Source: Escherichia phage phiKT. From it: a DNA stretch of 42,608 bases. The notes beneath the pieces were generated by a model. The model saw nothing but the letters and a program-made list of their open reading frames with translations. It did not search any database and was not told where the DNA came from. Location of the stretch: the sequence record JN882298; one strand, 5' to 3'. Within the stretch, counting starts at the first letter, position 1. Every line of letters begins with the position of its first letter. A program made the position numbers and the translations under genes. This document shows, piece after piece, positions 8,753-38,239 of this stretch.

Positions 8753-9722
8753 CATGACAAAGTTCAAGCTGCCTAAAGACCTTGGTTCGATGGTGCAGCC
8801 TGAACCTGTTAGCATTGTTCCTGAAATGGTTAAGGGTCGCCGCTGCCACATCGACGGCGACTACTTAGCCTACTTCGCCGCTGGCGGTGAGAATATGCCT
8901 GTGAGCATATGCCGCCAAGTGGTTCGGGAACGCGCCGAGAAGTTCCGGGTGATGACAGGTTCGGAAAGCATTCTACTGCAACTATCCGATAACCGATGCA
9001 CGAAAGGCGACCGGGTGTTCATTAGTACCACCCAACCATACCAAGGCCAACGCCTGTCCGGCAAGAAGCCGGGTAACTGGCAGGCAACCCGCGAGTATAT
9101 CGACTCTGGTGCTCATGGCATTCCAATGAAGGTTTGGAAAACGCGAGAGGCCGATGACGGAGCGGCATACTGTGCCGAGACGCAGAGCGGAGGCTTAGAT
9201 GCCATTTGTACTAAAGATAAAGATTGGCGTATGTTTGCTGGCCTGCACTGTATCTGGGATACTTTCCAATTGGTGCAAGTCAACCCCGGAGACTTTCGCG
9301 TCGATGGTCCTGCTCCTGTTAAGGATAAAAACGGCAAGACCCCACTTCAAAAGTATTATGGTCATTTCTTCTTCTGGCAGCAGATGCTATACGGAGACAC
9401 GGCAGACCACATCCCCGGTATACACGGGATTGGCGAGGCCACTGCCGCCCAACTTCTGCTTGACTGTACTAATAACGCCGAAGCATTCGATGTTGTCGCT
9501 GATATTTACAGGAAAAAGAAACGGGAGGAGTGGTCTGATTATATGGTTGAGCAGGCTGCGCTTCTATGGATGCGAACTGACCGACACGCAGACCTGCTGG
9601 ATTTCCTCAAGATATTCCCGGAAGATGAGGAAATTATCATTGCTGCGGAGAAGATGAGGCAGCGTGTTCTCGAAGATAAGGCTACCTTAGAGAGCATACT
9701 CAAAGGTTACTCACATAAATAG
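8745..9722 (+). CDS. 5'-3' exonuclease (FEN/T7 gene 6-like)
   Basis: PIN/FEN-type acidic motifs (HIDGDYLAY ...); position after the polymerase as in T7-like phages. Confidence 0.8.
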   Translation: MTNMTKFKLPKDLGSMVQPEPVSIVPEMVKGRRCHIDGDYLAYFAAGGENMPVSICRQVVRERAEKFRVMTGSESILLQLSDNRCTKGDRVFISTTQPYQGQRLSGKKPGNWQATREYIDSGAHGIPMKVWKTREADDGAAYCAETQSGGLDAICTKDKDWRMFAGLHCIWDTFQLVQVNPGDFRVDGPAPVKDKNGKTPLQKYYGHFFFWQQMLYGDTADHIPGIHGIGEATAAQLLLDCTNNAEAFDVVADIYRKKKREEWSDYMVEQAALLWMRTDRHADLLDFLKIFPEDEEIIIAAEKMRQRVLEDKATLESILKGYSHK

Positions 9723-19427: not shown

Positions 19428-20411
19428 ATGGCCTTACCAACTTGGACTCCTACCCGTCCTAACCAACAGAACCAAGCAGGTGATGTGAATGCTCTCATCA
19501 TCGAAGAGTTCACGGGCATCGTTGAGCACACTATTAAGCGTAAGCAGGTGCTGGCCCCGTTTATCCCGATGCGTACCATTCGTGGTACTAACACCCTGAC
19601 CAACTATGCGGTCGGCAACACCACTCTCGGCACTGTAACCACTGGTACTGAACCAGCGGAAACTTCTGGCCCGGATGTCTCCCGCAACTTCTTGGTTGTG
19701 GATACTCACGTCTATGCACGTAACTCCATCGGTCTTCTGGAAACCTTCCAGAGCACCATCGACATCCGTCGTGAGATTGCAATTGAGCATGGCGAAACCA
19801 TGTCCAAGTTTACTGACCAAGCCTTCTTCATTCAGGCGGTCAAAGCGGCTCGTGCTGTTCAGAGTTCTTACTCTGGTGGTACTGCTAGTAAACCGGGTGG
19901 CTTCGGCGTGGGTAACGTCCAGACTCTGGCTGCGGCTGGTGACGAACTGGATGGCACCAAGCTGTACAAAGCAATCAGCAACCTGTTCGTGAAGATGGAA
20001 CAGCAGGACGTGCAGCCGAATATGGATGGCATGGTTCTGGCTCTGGTTCCGTCTGCGTTCTACGCGCTGCTGGATGCTGAGCAAATCATCAACGGTAACT
20101 ATGTTACTGCTGACGGCACCAGCGTATCTGGTATGGTCTTCAAAGCGTTCGGTGTGCCTGTTGTTAAATCCAACAACATCCCGACCACCAACATCACATC
20201 ACATCCTCTGGGTGCGAACTACACTGGCGACTTCACCAAAGTCGTAGGCGTGGTTCTGTCTCCGAAGGCTCTGATGGCTGGTGAGACTATCCCGCTCCAG
20301 AGCGACCTGTTCTACGACAAGCTGCGTAAGACTTGGTACGTGGACTCCGAGCGTGCATTCGGTGTAGCACCGAACCGCAACGAATACGCTGGCGTTATTC
20401 AGAAAGCGTAA
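19428..20411 (+). CDS. Major capsid protein
   Basis: 327 aa; high-expression codon usage; followed by a strong terminator, as for T7 gene 10. Confidence 0.85.
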   Translation: MALPTWTPTRPNQQNQAGDVNALIIEEFTGIVEHTIKRKQVLAPFIPMRTIRGTNTLTNYAVGNTTLGTVTTGTEPAETSGPDVSRNFLVVDTHVYARNSIGLLETFQSTIDIRREIAIEHGETMSKFTDQAFFIQAVKAARAVQSSYSGGTASKPGGFGVGNVQTLAAAGDELDGTKLYKAISNLFVKMEQQDVQPNMDGMVLALVPSAFYALLDAEQIINGNYVTADGTSVSGMVFKAFGVPVVKSNNIPTTNITSHPLGANYTGDFTKVVGVVLSPKALMAGETIPLQSDLFYDKLRKTWYVDSERAFGVAPNRNEYAGVIQKA

Positions 20412-33925: not shown

Positions 33926-34297
33926 ATGTCCGACTTCGAAGAAGAGGATGTCACACAGGAAGAGAACGGGTCTTCGGACCTGTTCAAACCCTTAGAGACT
34001 ATCCCCGGCGCTACCGCCAACCGGGACCAGATGGCAGAGCTACACCAGCTTATCTGCATCGCCCTGTCCGCACGTATCCGGGCAGGTATCTGGTCCTCCG
34101 GCGATATTGCCGCAGCTACAAAGTTCCTGAAGGACAACAACGTCACTGCCGATGTTGGCGACAACAAGGCACTCCAGAAACTCCGCGATGAGATGGAGAC
34201 TAAGCAGAAGGCACGTCGTGAAGAACGGACGTATCTCTCTGAGCAGGAACTCGTCAAACTCGCAACGGAAGAACTGAATAACGAGATATGGCACTAA
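33926..34297 (+). CDS. Terminase small subunit
   Basis: 123 aa acidic protein immediately upstream of, and overlapping, the terminase large subunit. Confidence 0.55.
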   Translation: MSDFEEEDVTQEENGSSDLFKPLETIPGATANRDQMAELHQLICIALSARIRAGIWSSGDIAAATKFLKDNNVTADVGDNKALQKLRDEMETKQKARREERTYLSEQELVKLATEELNNEIWH

Positions 34298-36093
34298 GAG
34301 AATCAGCAGAAAGAGAAGAACAACGGCTACTTGAACTCGCAGCACTGCGGGACATGTACCCCACGTTCCTACCGTTTCTGATTGATTTCATGGTGATGCT
34401 CGGATTCTTCGTCACACCGGTACAGAAGCTCATTGCTCAATTCCTTGAGTACGGGCCTCTGTATCGGATGGTGCAGGCCCAGCGTGGTCAGGCGAAGACT
34501 ACCATCACAGCCGCATATGCAATCTGGCGACTTATCCACGATACCAACCTTGCCGTGTTGATCGTCTCGGCAGGGGGCAAGCAGGCGAACGAGATTTCAA
34601 CTCTCATCGTCCGCTCGTTCAAAACGTGGGATAGGCTGGCCTGCATGTGTCCTGACGCCTCTATGGGCGACCGTGAGTCAGTCGAAGCATTCGACGTTCA
34701 CTACAACTTAAAGAGGCTGAATAAATCTCCATCCGTGGCCTGTACTGGTATCACGGGTAACTTGCAGGGTAAACGTGCGGGTCTGCTTATCGCGGACGAC
34801 GTTGAGTCCCAGAAGAACTCCCTGACTGCGGTCATGCGTGAGAACCTCCTGAACCTGACTCGTGACTTTACCTCAATATGCTCCACCGGGGATATTATCT
34901 ACCTCGGTACACCACAGACTACAGAATCAATTTATAACACCTTGCCGGGGCGTGGCTTTACTGTCCGCATCTGGCCGGGACGTTTCCCTAACGCAGAACA
35001 GGTGGAAGCCTACGGCGACCAGCTATGCCCTGTCTTTAGGATGAAGATTGCTTCACGCCCTGACCTGACTACAGGCTACGGGCCGGATGGGCTTCAGGGT
35101 GCTCCGGTTGACCCGGTAATCCTTGGTGAAGCCTTCCTGAACAAGAAAGAGATTGACCAAGGGACTGCATACTTCCAGTTGCAGCACATGCTTCAGACGC
35201 GCCTGATGGATGCTATGCGCAAGCCATTACACGCAGAGAAGCTGATTGTGGCCCAACTGCCGAAGCGGGACGGTCTGTTCCCTATCACCATTACGCGAGA
35301 AATCTCTGTACAAGCCTACATGCGCCGAAACGTCCTGAGCAAGCCTCTGGTATTCGGTGTGCCCGGTAGCGTGTCTAAGGACGTCGCTACGCTTCAGGGC
35401 GTATGCTTCTACATCGACCCCGCTGGTGGTGGTAAGAACGCGGATGAAACTGCATTCGCTTGTACCGGGTTCCTGAACTCCAATATCTTCTTGCTGGATT
35501 GGGGCGGCTTACCGGGCGGATATGCCCCGGATGTTATGACCGCTCTCGCCCAACGTGTGTTTGAAGTGCGGCCCAATGTTGTCAAAATCGAAAAGAACTT
35601 CGGTTACGGCGTTCCGCGAAGTATGGTTGCCGTACCTCTGGGCCATTTTGATAAAGCTGGTGTTAACCGTCCCGGCGTAGAGGACGATATGGTACACGGC
35701 CAGAAGGAGAAGCGAATCATTGATACGCTTGAGCCTGTAATGGGTCGTGGCTCGCTCATTGTTGACGAGCGTCTCATCAAGGAAGACGAAGACCAGACCA
35801 TGCGGTACAGCGCACAAATGCGTGTGACGTACTCCGGGTTCCTACAGATGGTTAATATCTCCTACGACAAAGATGCGTTGGTGCATGATGACCGACTGGA
35901 TGCTTTGGAAGGAGCGGTTCGTCATTGGCAGGATTGGCTGGCCAAGAACCAAGAGAAGGCCATTCAGGCTCAACGGAAACGTGAGTTCGAAGAGTGGCAG
36001 AAAGACCCGATGATGAAGAAGCGTTGTCAGTCCGTGAAGGAATACAATGCTGGTCGTCGTGGTAAAACCATGTTTGATAAGAGAAAACGCTAA
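34288..36093 (+). CDS. Terminase large subunit
   Basis: 601 aa; ATPase P-loop-like segment (QRGQAKTT) and C-terminal nuclease-type acidic motifs; position as T7 gp19. Confidence 0.85.
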   Translation: MALRESAEREEQRLLELAALRDMYPTFLPFLIDFMVMLGFFVTPVQKLIAQFLEYGPLYRMVQAQRGQAKTTITAAYAIWRLIHDTNLAVLIVSAGGKQANEISTLIVRSFKTWDRLACMCPDASMGDRESVEAFDVHYNLKRLNKSPSVACTGITGNLQGKRAGLLIADDVESQKNSLTAVMRENLLNLTRDFTSICSTGDIIYLGTPQTTESIYNTLPGRGFTVRIWPGRFPNAEQVEAYGDQLCPVFRMKIASRPDLTTGYGPDGLQGAPVDPVILGEAFLNKKEIDQGTAYFQLQHMLQTRLMDAMRKPLHAEKLIVAQLPKRDGLFPITITREISVQAYMRRNVLSKPLVFGVPGSVSKDVATLQGVCFYIDPAGGGKNADETAFACTGFLNSNIFLLDWGGLPGGYAPDVMTALAQRVFEVRPNVVKIEKNFGYGVPRSMVAVPLGHFDKAGVNRPGVEDDMVHGQKEKRIIDTLEPVMGRGSLIVDERLIKEDEDQTMRYSAQMRVTYSGFLQMVNISYDKDALVHDDRLDALEGAVRHWQDWLAKNQEKAIQAQRKREFEEWQKDPMMKKRCQSVKEYNAGRRGKTMFDKRKR

Positions 36094-36329
36094 TGACTAT
36101 TGCTGCACAACTCCCAGACCCGAAGCTCGACGTTAAGGGCGACCGACTGCGTTTCCTGTTGGCCGCTTGTATCAGCGAGTGTAATATCCAAGCAGACAAC
36201 GGTGCGTATGATAAAGGCACCAGCTTCAAAGCCCTGCTTACTGCCGCTGCTGCACTCGTGAAGGTAGCTCCGGTAGAACCTGAAGACCCGGAAGACCCTG
36301 AAGACCCTGAAGACCCTGAAAACCCGTAA
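36093..36329 (+). CDS. Small hypothetical protein with C-terminal PEDPEDPEDPEDPENP repeat
   Basis: TAATG overlap with the terminase stop; C-terminus encoded by five tandem 9-bp units. Confidence 0.4.
   Translation: MTIAAQLPDPKLDVKGDRLRFLLAACISECNIQADNGAYDKGTSFKALLTAAAALVKVAPVEPEDPEDPEDPEDPENP
36283..36327. repeat. 5 x 9-bp tandem repeat (gaagaccc[g/t])
   Basis: Tandem units read directly in the sequence; encodes the (PED)n tail of the 36093..36329 ORF. Confidence 0.85.
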
Positions 36330-36372
36330 GAATAATACAATTGGCCAAGGACGGCTATTGAGGAACCTATTT

Positions 36373-36660
36373 ATGCGTATCGACGATATCTGCTCACCCG
36401 GTTTTGTACCTAACTCCCACCGTCTTCGTCAGGAGACTGTCCGGGCCATTGCTTTCTGTGAAACCATAGGAAGCGCTGAGAAGGCCGTAGAGCTACAGAA
36501 ATACTTTCGTGAGGCTATCGAATACCTTGACCGAGAAATTGTCTCCAGCGGCTTGCCAGAGAGCGAGAAGCCTATTGTGGATGCTGATGCTGTGTCACCA
36601 TTCGATGAGGAAGAAGTTGTGGCCGAGCCGAAACCTAAAGCCAAAGGAGGCAAGAAGTGA
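36373..36660 (+). CDS. Hypothetical acidic protein upstream of the endolysin
   Basis: Track ORF 36358..36660; ATG at 36373 with GAGGAA RBS; no transmembrane segment seen. Confidence 0.45.
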   Translation: MRIDDICSPGFVPNSHRLRQETVRAIAFCETIGSAEKAVELQKYFREAIEYLDREIVSSGLPESEKPIVDADAVSPFDEEEVVAEPKPKAKGGKK

Positions 36661-37109
36661 ATCTGACCGCAGCGGAGAAGTTAGTTCGACATTTTGAAGG
36701 TCTGAAGTTAGAAGCGTACCTGTGCCCTGCTGGTAAGTGGACTATCGGGTACGGACAGACCAAGGGTATTAAGGAAGGTATGGTGTGGACCAAGGCTCAG
36801 GCCGAAGCAGATATGTCTGCCACTGTCCGACGCTTTGCCGAAGAAGTACGTCAACTGGTCCGCAAGGATACGACCGACGCTGAACTAAGCGCATTCACTT
36901 CTCTGGCCTATAACATCGGTACTCCAAACTTTAAGACGTCCTCTGCTCTGCGTTGGCATAATGCCCGTGAGTCCGCGTCCAAGGTGTGCGCTGGTATCCG
37001 TATGTGGAACAAGGCCACCGTCAATGGTAAGAAGATTATCCTGAAGGGTCTGGTACGTCGCCGAGAGGCTGAATGCTCCGTATACACAACTGGAGACTTT
37101 AATGAGTAA
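36657..37109 (+). CDS. Endolysin, phage lysozyme (GH24 T4-lysozyme-like muramidase)
   Basis: N-terminus MNLTAAEKLVRHFEGLKLEAYLCPAGKWTIGYGQT aligns with the T4 lysozyme catalytic Glu/Asp/Thr region; GTG start overlapping the upstream stop. Confidence 0.85.
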   Translation: MNLTAAEKLVRHFEGLKLEAYLCPAGKWTIGYGQTKGIKEGMVWTKAQAEADMSATVRRFAEEVRQLVRKDTTDAELSAFTSLAYNIGTPNFKTSSALRWHNARESASKVCAGIRMWNKATVNGKKIILKGLVRRREAECSVYTTGDFNE

Positions 37110-37272
37110 ATTCAAGAAATATCTGGGTGCCGCATGGGATTTCACCAAGGAACATGGTGTGACTATCCTGCGTGGTGTGGCTGTCCTCCTTGTAGGTCGT
37201 AAGGTTGGTCGCGTTGCCAACCAGTCCGCCGATGTACTTGATACGGTCATCAAAGGGACTAAGAAGAATTAA
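37102..37272 (+). CDS. 56-aa small membrane protein (possible holin/antiholin-type lysis accessory)
   Basis: ATG overlapping the endolysin end; one hydrophobic segment (GVTILRGVAVLLVG); below the ORF-track cut-off. Confidence 0.35.
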   Translation: MSKFKKYLGAAWDFTKEHGVTILRGVAVLLVGRKVGRVANQSADVLDTVIKGTKKN

Positions 37273-37281
37273 AGGATAGCC

Positions 37282-37665
37282 ATGTTCGAAGGCACCGGGA
37301 ACTACGGTTCCCTTGTGACCACCCTCCTTACGGGAGCAGTGGCGGCTCAAACCTCTTATCAGGTATCCCGTATAGTCACACATGATTCTCTGTTATTAGT
37401 TGGCATCCTCTGCGTCATCGGTATCGTGGTAGGTCTGGGCCATGCTCTCTCAAGCAAGTCCCCTCTCCCATTCCGTCGTATCGTAGGCAAGGTGCTTATG
37501 TCTACTGGCGTGGCCGTTACAGCCGCTGCCGTCTATTACTTCAAACCAAGTACCGACCCGTTAGTCGTCATTGCCATTGGCGCTGGGTTAAGCGTCATGG
37601 GTTCTGGCTGGCTGGAAGAGTTCGTCCGGAACAGAACAGGAACCAAGAAGGATGATGGTAGTTAA
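37282..37665 (+). CDS. Holin-like multi-pass membrane protein
   Basis: 127 aa with about three hydrophobic segments and a charged C-terminal tail; adjacent to the endolysin. Confidence 0.5.
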   Translation: MFEGTGNYGSLVTTLLTGAVAAQTSYQVSRIVTHDSLLLVGILCVIGIVVGLGHALSSKSPLPFRRIVGKVLMSTGVAVTAAAVYYFKPSTDPLVVIAIGAGLSVMGSGWLEEFVRNRTGTKKDDGS

Positions 37666-37720
37666 AAGCTCTCAGAAGCTCTACAACGCTCTCAAGGACG
37701 AGAGCAATACGATGTTACCA

Positions 37721-37795
37721 CCTGACCCTGATTAGATGCCTGATGACTTCATTAGCACGTTTTAAGTTGATTCCTGATTAGATGATTAGCTAGTC
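37721..37795. repeat. Direct repeats of cctgattagatg and related attag units
   Basis: cctgattagatg at ~37727..37738 and ~37773..37784, with additional attag copies between. Confidence 0.6.
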
Positions 37796-37810: not shown

Positions 37811-37854
37811 TAAAATTTGATATAATTTTGTGAGGGGGCAGTCCAACACAAATG
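37811..37854. repeat. Direct repeat (a)gggcagtcc flanking an AT-rich palindrome
   Basis: agggcagtcc at ~37811..37820 and gggcagtcc at ~37846..37854 flank taaaatttgatataatttt. Confidence 0.5.
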
Positions 37855-37886
37855 AGGTCGCGTTTCCCCCGTAGGCCCGGCCTTCT

Positions 37887-37958
37887 GGATGGCTGAATGG
37901 CTGGATGGATGGATGGCTGGACGGCTAGACGTTTAGACGGCTAAATGGCCAAATGACC
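37887..37958. repeat. Tandem array of nine imperfect 8-bp units (consensus ggatggct)
   Basis: ggatggct gaatggct ggatggat ggatggct ggacggct agacgttt agacggct aaatggcc aaatgacc read in strict 8-nt register. Confidence 0.8.
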
Positions 37959-38017
37959 GTAAAAAAGGGCCGTGTGCACTGATAGGGTCAATCGGGCTGT
38001 AGGTCGCGCCAACCGGA

Positions 38018-38044
38018 GTTTCCGCACATTACTTTATAAGGGAG
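38018..38044 (+). promoter_or_regulatory. Phage RNAP promoter-like motif, copy 2
   Basis: gtttccgcacattactttataagggag; matches 14534..14560 except for one substitution and one indel. Confidence 0.5.
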
Positions 38045-38134
38045 CTTGTAAGGTGTCTGGCGGCGATCCGTCTGACGACGGGAGAAGGGAAGAGACGTGG
38101 GGTATCTATCTTTTTGTGATTAGTGTTAGTTGTG

Positions 38135-38165
38135 TATCTATCTATCTATGTATGTATGTATATCC
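38135..38165. repeat. Tetranucleotide microsatellite (tatc)3(tatg)3
   Basis: tatctatctatctatgtatgtatgtata read directly. Confidence 0.8.
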
Positions 38166-38209
38166 GGCTATCCTTTATCTGCGCTGCGACGGGCCAGCTA
38201 TCGCTTTCC

Positions 38210-38239
38210 TTGTCTTCGCTACGATAAGGAAGCTATAAT
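38210..38239 (+). promoter_or_regulatory. Sigma70-type promoter candidate driving the 38279 mini-operon
   Basis: -35 TTGTCT, 18-nt spacer, -10 TATAAT (perfect); ~40 nt upstream of a strong-RBS ATG. Confidence 0.5.

Follow-up and report, generated by a model that had tools for sequence, protein, structure and literature searches.

[quoted passage not shown] The window, which is the whole stretch of 42,608 nucleotides analysed here, is the genome of Escherichia phage phiKT, a member of the genus Ermolevavirus (Autographiviridae), and its nearest match in the phage collection is PGT2 of the same genus, at 96.6% identity. About 13-15% of the phages with Gram-negative hosts lack spanins, and phiKT gp28 is, to our knowledge, the first replacement for them to have been demonstrated. 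It is a cationic antimicrobial peptide, made by the phage itself, whose action disrupts the outer membrane from inside.

The disruptin was discovered on the phiKT genome itself and is already known from the literature (2019 preprint; J Bacteriol 2022), UniProt, and Pfam. The main finding adds nothing new to this, and the context added here consists of the narrow clade of the family and its synteny with the spanin pair of related phages. Holt et al. (10.1101/515445) found no lipobox in any phiKT ORF, and concluded from the lack of a lipoprotein gene that the phage has no spanin. When cloned behind the lambda late promoter, genes 27-28-29 produce lysis that is saltatory and complete, and phiKT infection ends in explosive lysis even at millimolar Mg2+ (10.1101/515445). 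All the descriptors in that study fit the window: gp27 has 150 aa and the residues E14-C23-T29, gp28 has 56 aa, 15 charged residues, a net charge of +7, and an E17 codon, and gp29 has 127 aa and a mass of 13.2 kDa. A first-pass annotation of this DNA had drawn the lysis module wider, at 36093-37665, with five + strand ORFs. All five are present at their coordinates, and the module holds for 36657..37665; the (PED)n-tailed and 95-aa ORFs at its left end lie outside the cloned construct that lyses cells.

Gene 27 (36657..37109, +) encodes a soluble GH24 (T4-lysozyme-type) endolysin of 150 aa. The protein matches PF00959 Phage_lysozyme (E 6.4e-36; 123.9 bits, cut-off 22.3), phrog_7 endolysin (4.6e-44), and endolysins and lysozymes in PDB (down to 1.7e-22), while its NCBIfam matches to a lysozyme family are sub-threshold only. 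The translation contains the catalytic triad E14-x8-C23-x5-T29, which fits the GH24 pattern E-x8-D/C-x5-T and is stated for phiKT gp27 by Holt et al. (10.1101/515445). The N-terminus, MNLTAAEKLVRHFEG, is hydrophilic, and nowhere in the protein does the 19-residue Kyte-Doolittle window (KD19) exceed 0.23. A SAR (signal-anchor-release) or signal-bearing endolysin is ruled out by this value, in line with the earlier description of a GH24 lysozyme without signal or SAR segment. The GTG start of gene 27 overlaps the stop of the 95-aa ORF (GTGA), and an AGGAGG lies 7 nt upstream.

Gene 29 (37282..37665, +) encodes a 127-aa, 13.2-kDa protein with the features of a PF04550 holin. It matches PF04550 Phage_holin_3_2 at 37.9 bits (cut-off 25) and phrog_175 holin at E 4.3e-27, and its counterpart in PGT2 is annotated as a holin. 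Strongly hydrophobic segments occupy residues 36-58, 71-87, and 93-111, a weakly hydrophobic N-terminal segment occupies residues 4-29, and the C-terminus is charged: RNRTGTKKDDGS. Holt et al. describe the protein with four predicted TMDs (10.1101/515445). The family match, multiple TMDs, charged C-terminus, and neighbouring lysis genes place gp29 among the PF04550 holins, with hole formation as the predicted function, and bear out the multi-pass, holin-like protein recognised earlier. A tblastn search of phage records with the holin finds PGT2 only.

Gene 28 (37102..37272, +) lies between these two genes, and its first 8 nt are shared with the end of gene 27. Its product is gp28, the founding disruptin, as judged from the accession, the UniProt name, and the matching descriptors of 10.1101/515445: the translation is exactly equal to AEZ65111.1, YP_007006611.1, and UniProt H6VUC3 'Disruptin gp28'. 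It matches phrog_35982 at 1.7e-42, and two of its homologues (P0001 and P0002) carry PF26810 Phage_disruptin as a precomputed match. The protein has 56 aa, a mass of 6.1 kDa, a pI of 10.3, a net charge of +7, and no Cys. No stretch free of charged residues exceeds 8 residues, and the KD19 peaks at 1.24, against a usual transmembrane threshold of ~1.6. The C-terminal half is amphipathic, with muH(18) up to 0.68 at residues 33-50, and the AF2 model is a single long helix over residues 3-55 (pLDDT 80.6). Gp28 is thus a cationic amphipathic peptide and not a transmembrane protein. It is small, cationic, and predicted to be helical and amphipathic, it has no signal peptide, TMD, or lipobox, and its gene sits between those of an endolysin and a holin in a phage without a credible lipoprotein ORF. 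These are the features of a disruptin.

The published phenotypes assign outer membrane disruption to this peptide. Deletion of gene 28, or its E17X allele, abolishes lysis and leaves spherical cells, and the gene complements a lambda Rz-am Rz1-am double amber (10.1101/515445). Gp28-His partitions with membranes and withstands KCl and urea washes, and the synthetic peptide has MIC and MBC values similar to those of LL-37 (10.1101/515445). The suggestion that spanins are missing or replaced, with an otherwise unassigned protein doing the job, agrees with these results, as gp28 is needed for outer membrane disruption and stands in for lambda Rz/Rz1. The lipobox search, the lambda complementation, and the divalent-cation lysis tests proposed alongside it correspond to work already published (10.1101/515445).

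In the reading favoured here, lysis runs in three steps. The multi-pass gp29 builds up in the inner membrane, triggers, and makes holes. Gp27, which is cytoplasmic and signal-less, leaves through the gp29 holes and degrades the peptidoglycan. Gp28 is synthesised in the cytosol without an export signal, binds and crosses the inner membrane, and accumulates mainly in the outer membrane. There it probably strips LPS of divalent cations in the manner of LL-37-type peptides; LPS cation displacement is also the model of Holt et al. for membrane weakening (10.1101/515445). The outer membrane weakened by gp28 would then give way after loss of the cell wall.

Two small acidic ORFs lie between the terminase gene and gene 27. 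In terL, the window shows an apparent out-of-frame stretch of 13 codons within 35600..35660. The first acidic ORF (36093..36329, +; 78 aa) has a net charge of -9 and a C-terminal (PED)n tail, VEPEDPEDPEDPEDPENP, whose coding sequence at 36275..36325 consists of 5.7 tandem copies of a 9-bp unit. The ATG of this ORF overlaps the terminase stop (TAATG). Residues 1-54 are nearly invariant in PGT2 and in two metagenomic relatives (L002 and L003), whereas the tail is variable, with two repeat units fewer in PGT2 and none in L002 and L003. The second ORF (36373..36660, +) has 95 aa from an ATG or 100 aa from an upstream TTG, a net charge of -5, and a tail that is predicted to be disordered and acidic and that ends in KPKAKGGKK. 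Its AF2 model, made without an alignment, is a helical hairpin with a disordered tail, at low confidence (pLDDT 61.7). It is 98-99% identical in PGT2 and L002, and seven of its eight substitutions relative to PGT2 fall at third codon positions. The 95-aa ORF has no match in Pfam or NCBIfam, an NCBIfam search with the small ORFs gives nothing, and tblastn of the two acidic ORFs against phage records finds PGT2 only. Both match phrog_13588 weakly (the 78-aa ORF at 5e-5). Paralogy of the two was rejected, with no BLASTP match and an hhalign probability of 0.06%.

The possibility that one or both acidic ORFs belong to the lysis system, as an outer membrane disruptor or as a regulator or chaperone of the disruptin, is very unlikely. 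The two are directly upstream of the lysis genes and apparently translationally coupled to their neighbours through the terminase stop/ATG and 95-aa stop/endolysin GTG overlaps. Both are conserved throughout the clade and negatively charged (net -9 and -5), opposite in sign to gp28 (+7), and the published work (10.1101/515445) leaves room for a factor that keeps gp28 harmless before holin triggering. In contrast, genes 27-28-29 suffice for full lysis, and gene 28 by itself makes up for the spanin defect of lambda mutants (10.1101/515445). This indicates that neither acidic ORF is required for outer membrane disruption. Both lack a signal peptide, a TMD, and a lipobox, and match no lysis family. 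Small post-terminase ORFs are also found in spanin-encoding relatives (Percy gp51 and Lullwater gp46), and the position is therefore not specific to disruptin phages.

Anionic pro-pieces accompany eukaryotic cationic peptides. By analogy, the 78-aa protein, with its variable (PED)n copy number, and the 95-aa protein might conceivably, at a long stretch, act in trans to neutralise or time the +7 disruptin. If true, this would explain how the membrane-active gp28 stays subordinate to the holin clock.

Another reading holds that gp28 is an integral single-pass membrane protein, either an antiholin or holin accessory or an 'OmpW family transmembrane protein', and not an outer membrane disruptor. 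The latter name is the GenBank product name, the central stretch VTILRGVAVLLVG is hydrophobic, and gene 28 adjoins the holin gene. Even so, this reading is hardly credible. The uncharged run of 8 and the best KD19 of 1.24 fall short of a transmembrane segment, the hydrophobic stretch is interrupted and flanked by Arg24 and Arg33/Lys34, and there is no Pfam OmpW match. The null phenotype is spherical cells and not a timing defect (10.1101/515445), which indicates that the peptidoglycan is degraded while the outer membrane stays intact. Gp28 also works with the unrelated holin and endolysin of lambda (10.1101/515445). The single-pass or antiholin reading is already refuted by these published phenotypes. 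The 56-aa product had been listed as a single-helix membrane protein, of which the one long helix stands in the AF2 model and the membrane span does not.

The remaining alternative to the disruptin is a spanin. A search for a lipobox ORF in 36000..37700 finds none in any + frame, and scanning all six frames of the 42.6-kb genome for a lipobox yields no credible lipoprotein. Four weak candidates are left after the filters. Three of the four are antisense to structural genes, while all phiKT genes are on the + strand. The only + strand candidate is a GTG ORF at 38053..38238 (...IYLFVISVS|C) with an acidic n-region, which lies in non-coding DNA of low complexity and runs across the physical end of the genome at ~38103. 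An ORF at 19852, out of frame in the capsid gene, has Arg residues between its hydrophobic stretch and the Cys. As a positive control, the same scanner recovers the o-spanins of the Caulobacter phages Percy and Lullwater. The i-spanin layout, an N-terminal TMD followed by a periplasmic coiled coil of ~100-150 aa, is found in none of the five ORFs: the 78-aa and 95-aa ORFs have maximum KD19 values of 1.37 and 0.68 and no TMD, gp28 has only 56 aa without a TMD, and gp29 is multi-pass. Two candidate systems are rejected on these grounds, the two-component Rz/Rz1 type for want of a lipobox o-spanin and an i-spanin layout, and the unimolecular T1 gp11 type (N-terminal lipobox and C-terminal TMD) for want of a lipobox ORF. 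The earlier statement that the module lacks an Rz/Rz1-type pair is confirmed and extends to the rest of the genome. The chance that a conventional spanin is present but hidden, by out-of-frame embedding, a rare start codon, or a location elsewhere in the genome, is close to nil: the permissive scan does give a few lipobox-like strings (38053..38238 and the ORF at 19852), but the candidates are antisense, non-coding, or Arg-interrupted, none lies in 36000..37700, the scanner detects the true o-spanins of Percy and Lullwater, no ORF has a lipobox according to 10.1101/515445, and losing just gene 28 is enough to produce the spanin-null phenotype.

The disruptin family is confined to one narrow clade, whose members fall into just one cluster at 50% identity within 1.84 billion representative proteins. 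Gp28 differs from PGT2 gp45 at two residues, S2N and K6Q, and its metagenomic relatives are 73-96% identical. A word-indexed search with gp28 gives two clusters, and an HMM scan with a 21-sequence disruptin profile against 1.84e9 representative proteins returns nothing beyond this clade except two chance matches, both repetitive and multi-stretch. A tblastn search with gp28 against 50,697 phage records finds PGT2 only. Scans for tRNA, Rfam families, and terminators found nothing.

Outside the genus, the phages closest in terminase encode an endolysin, an i-spanin, and an o-spanin just before the right terminal repeat. Gp28 and the holin occupy the syntenic position of this spanin pair in related Autographiviridae. 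Percy and Lullwater, the Caulobacter phages of this family, have terminases ~55% identical to that of phiKT and a GH24 endolysin homologous to gp27 (29% identical, E 3e-13). As in phiKT, their lysis cassette is immediately before the right terminal repeat. They differ in that their endolysin gene is followed by those of an i-spanin and a lipobox o-spanin, and that a small holin is encoded upstream of terS. In phiKT the endolysin gene is followed by gene 28 and a PF04550 holin gene, and the interval from the tail fibre gene to terS contains no holin gene.

Compared with the lambda Rz/Rz1 and T1 gp11 spanins, gp28 acts at the same lysis step, outer membrane disruption after peptidoglycan degradation. 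Unlike them, it has no lipobox, TM anchor, periplasm-spanning complex, or embedded gene architecture. The action proposed for spanins is fusion of the inner with the outer membrane, whereas for the disruptin it is weakening of the outer membrane in the way of a cationic peptide (10.1101/515445). The human cathelicidin LL-37, like other cationic alpha-helical antimicrobial peptides, resembles gp28 in being small, helical, amphipathic, and strongly cationic (+6 for LL-37 against +7), and the two have comparable MIC and MBC values when added externally (10.1101/515445). There is no sequence relationship between them, and the peak muH over 18 residues is lower in gp28 (0.68) than in LL-37 (0.89). 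LL-37 has 37 aa, whereas gp28 has 56 aa, is not cut from a precursor, and acts from inside the cell that produces it.

Five tightly packed ORFs lie downstream of the large terminase gene (terL, 34288..36093) on the + strand, which carries all long ORFs of the window. ORF78 (36093..36329, 78 aa) has an ATG that overlaps the terminase stop, and it is followed by ORF95 (36373..36660, 95 aa). The endolysin gene for gp27 (36657..37109, 150 aa) has a GTG start that overlaps the ORF95 stop, with AGGAGG 7 nt upstream. The gene for gp28 (37102..37272, 56 aa) overlaps it by 8 nt, and the gene for gp29 (37282..37665, 127 aa) comes last. The five-ORF lysis region of the first-pass annotation is thus borne out by the ORFs and by lysozyme and holin family matches. 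The closest phage is Escherichia phage PGT2 (Ermolevavirus, Autographiviridae), with 96.6% identity over the region; no other record in the phage collection comes close. The great majority of substitutions between the two in the endolysin, holin and ORF95 affect the third base of a codon. Metagenomic relatives keep the order terS, terL, small ORF, 94-aa ORF, endolysin, disruptin, holin. In two of these (L002:6551-6748, L003:5996-6193), a 65-aa ORF overlaps the holin gene at its 3' end; the product has a hydrophobic C-terminus and lacks a lipobox. The window counterpart of this ORF (37652..37735) has only 27 aa.

The absence of a recognisable Rz/Rz1-type spanin pair, noticed earlier from the lysis module, holds across the genome. 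The whole genome was extended circularly and scanned in six frames for a permissive lipobox after an uncharged hydrophobic stretch with a basic n-region, allowing ATG, GTG and TTG starts. Run on Caulobacter phages Percy and Lullwater as positive controls, this scanner detects their o-spanins; in phiKT it leaves four candidates. Three are antisense to structural genes. The n-region of the fourth (38053..38238) is acidic, and this candidate sits in low-complexity non-coding DNA and spans the physical genome end; all four were rejected. A more permissive scan of the + strand yields no plausible candidate anywhere and no convincing one in 36000..37700, the interval proposed for a lipobox search. 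The published analysis likewise reports no phiKT ORF with a lipobox (10.1101/515445). In L002 and L003, a short out-of-frame ORF in the tail fibre gene (L002:2251-2349, L003:1696-1794) has a lipobox-like MDIRRVINRVTQVVVLLG directly before C, with a mature part of only ~14 aa. Judged by sequence, this motif is probably due to chance, since the ORF is absent from the window and PGT2.

By exact-sequence look-up, the 56-aa product is AEZ65111.1, YP_007006611.1 and UniProt H6VUC3, "Disruptin gp28" of phiKT. This solution has been described in print, carries its name in UniProt and has a Pfam model, PF26810 (Phage_disruptin), which is assigned to relatives. The GenBank name, "hypothetical OmpW family transmembrane protein", lacks support, as gp28 has no transmembrane segment and matches neither OmpW nor any other family in the local Pfam library. 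The protein has a mass of 6.1 kDa and a pI of 10.3. Uncharged runs reach 8 residues at most, and the maximal 19-residue Kyte-Doolittle score (KD19) is 1.24, so a transmembrane segment is lacking. Strong amphipathicity marks the C-terminal half, whose hydrophobic moment over 18 residues is 0.68, compared with 0.89 in LL-37. AF2, run with 21 homologues, predicts a single continuous helix over residues 3-55 (pLDDT 80.6). The 21 distinct homologues are 73-96% identical, and residues 14-43 are almost invariant. A profile search of 1.84 billion representative proteins finds one 50%-identity cluster, and PGT2 is the sole tblastn match among 50,697 phage records. By these searches, the disruptin family is still confined to the phiKT clade.

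The neighbouring products are an endolysin and a holin. A GH24 phage lysozyme is evident in gp27 (PF00959, E 6e-36; also phrog_7), which matches PDB endolysins (best E 2e-22) and has the catalytic triad E14-x8-C23-x5-T29. No hydrophobic N-terminus is found in gp27 (maximal KD19 0.23), in agreement with the earlier description of a lysozyme without a signal or SAR segment. The holin gp29 matches PF04550 above the gathering score, as well as phrog_175, and contains four hydrophobic segments, three strong and one weak. Of the two membrane proteins first proposed here, gp29 stands as a transmembrane protein, and the 56-aa protein does not.

Holt et al. (bioRxiv 10.1101/515445; journal version J Bacteriol 204:e00214-21, as cited in PMC12819732) picked phiKT as an exemplar of the ~13-15% of Gram-negative phages that are spaninless. 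All their descriptors match the window proteins, namely gp27 (150 aa, E14-C23-T29), gp28 (56 aa, 15 charged residues, net +7, Glu at position 17), and gp29 (127 aa, 13.2 kDa). Infection gives explosive lysis, millimolar Mg2+ notwithstanding, and lysis from the cloned 27-28-29 cluster is saltatory. When gene 28 is deleted or carries a nonsense mutation (E17X), lysis is lost and spherical cells remain; the gene also complements a lambda Rz-am Rz1-am lysogen. Outer-membrane rupture by the phiKT cassette needs gp28, which can also substitute for the lambda spanins. It associates with membranes and acts like a cationic antimicrobial peptide; gp28-His is membrane-bound, chiefly in the outer membrane, and is not removed by washing with KCl or urea, and the MIC/MBC values of synthetic gp28 resemble those of LL-37 (10.1101/515445).

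ORF78 and ORF95 lie outside the cloned construct that gives full lysis (10.1101/515445) and are therefore not to be counted as lysis genes; the module first drawn keeps the endolysin, gp28 and holin. Both are conserved within the clade and acidic (net charge -9 and -5), and no TMD, signal sequence or lipobox is found in either. Each weakly matches phrog_13588, and no similarity is detectable between them. A 9-bp tandem repeat (36275..36325, 5.7 copies) encodes the (PED)4 at the C-terminal end of the ORF78 product. This tail is not stable: the PGT2 version is two units shorter, with its stop codon shifted by two codons, and the counterpart in the distant relatives L002 and L003 ends in AIAVEPLP with no PED repeat. 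It is conceivable, though unlikely, that ORF78 and ORF95 modulate the cationic disruptin.

The 260-bp direct terminal repeat of PGT2 corresponds to ~37842..38103 of the window, which places the lysis cassette ~180 bp from the right physical end and indicates that the record is circularly permuted and retains a single, collapsed copy of the repeat. Inside it, 37878..37957 is an array of 8-bp units (TGGATGGC / TAGACGGC), ~80% similar to non-coding arrays of the jumbo phages PBECO4, 121Q, vB_Ec-M-J, GAP32 and CBB. In several of these records, ~700-900 nt separate the array from the record start, and the vB_Ec-M-J and CBB arrays fall within a repeat annotated as terminal or redundant. The array may represent a common repeat with a role at genome ends or in packaging, or simple sequence that arose convergently. 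Compared with PGT2, a metagenomic relative and Percy, terL lacks 2 nt and then 1 nt within 35611..35650. These deletions put 13 codons out of frame, and VPRSMVAVPLGHF replaces the conserved AFREVWLPYLWAIY. The probable cause is an error in the sequencing of phiKT, the alternative being a compensated frameshift.

In the model of Holt et al., gp28 would cross the inner membrane and then bind LPS, displacing some stabilising divalent cations and reducing the load-bearing strength of the outer membrane. Endolysin released by the holin would strip the peptidoglycan, and the weakened outer membrane would fail. Dose is the authors' suggestion for why gp28 does not collapse the PMF or trigger the holin early (10.1101/515445). 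The present analysis contributes the sequence identity of gp28, the lack of lipoprotein genes, the predicted amphipathic cationic helix, and the syntenic replacement.

Outside the genus, Percy and Lullwater have the nearest terminases, at ~55% identity. The right ends of these phages comprise terL, small ORFs, a GH24 endolysin, i-spanin, o-spanin and the terminal repeat, with a small holin upstream of terS. In Lullwater, an 82-aa lipobox ORF (L007:8948-9196; LKLTRIGLTSLFLATFLTA directly before C, TTG start) begins within the Rz-like gene, so the second annotated "Rz-like spanin" CDS (9047..9196) may be a 5'-truncated o-spanin. No holin gene is found between the tail fibre gene and terS of phiKT. 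The first-pass annotation proposed that spanins are missing or replaced, or that an unassigned protein does their job; the published function of gp28 and the lack of lipoprotein genes support this reading. The endolysins gp27 and that of Percy are homologous. In phiKT, gp28 and the PF04550 holin fill the slot of the Percy/Lullwater spanin pair, which supports replacement of the spanins in phiKT rather than their mere absence.
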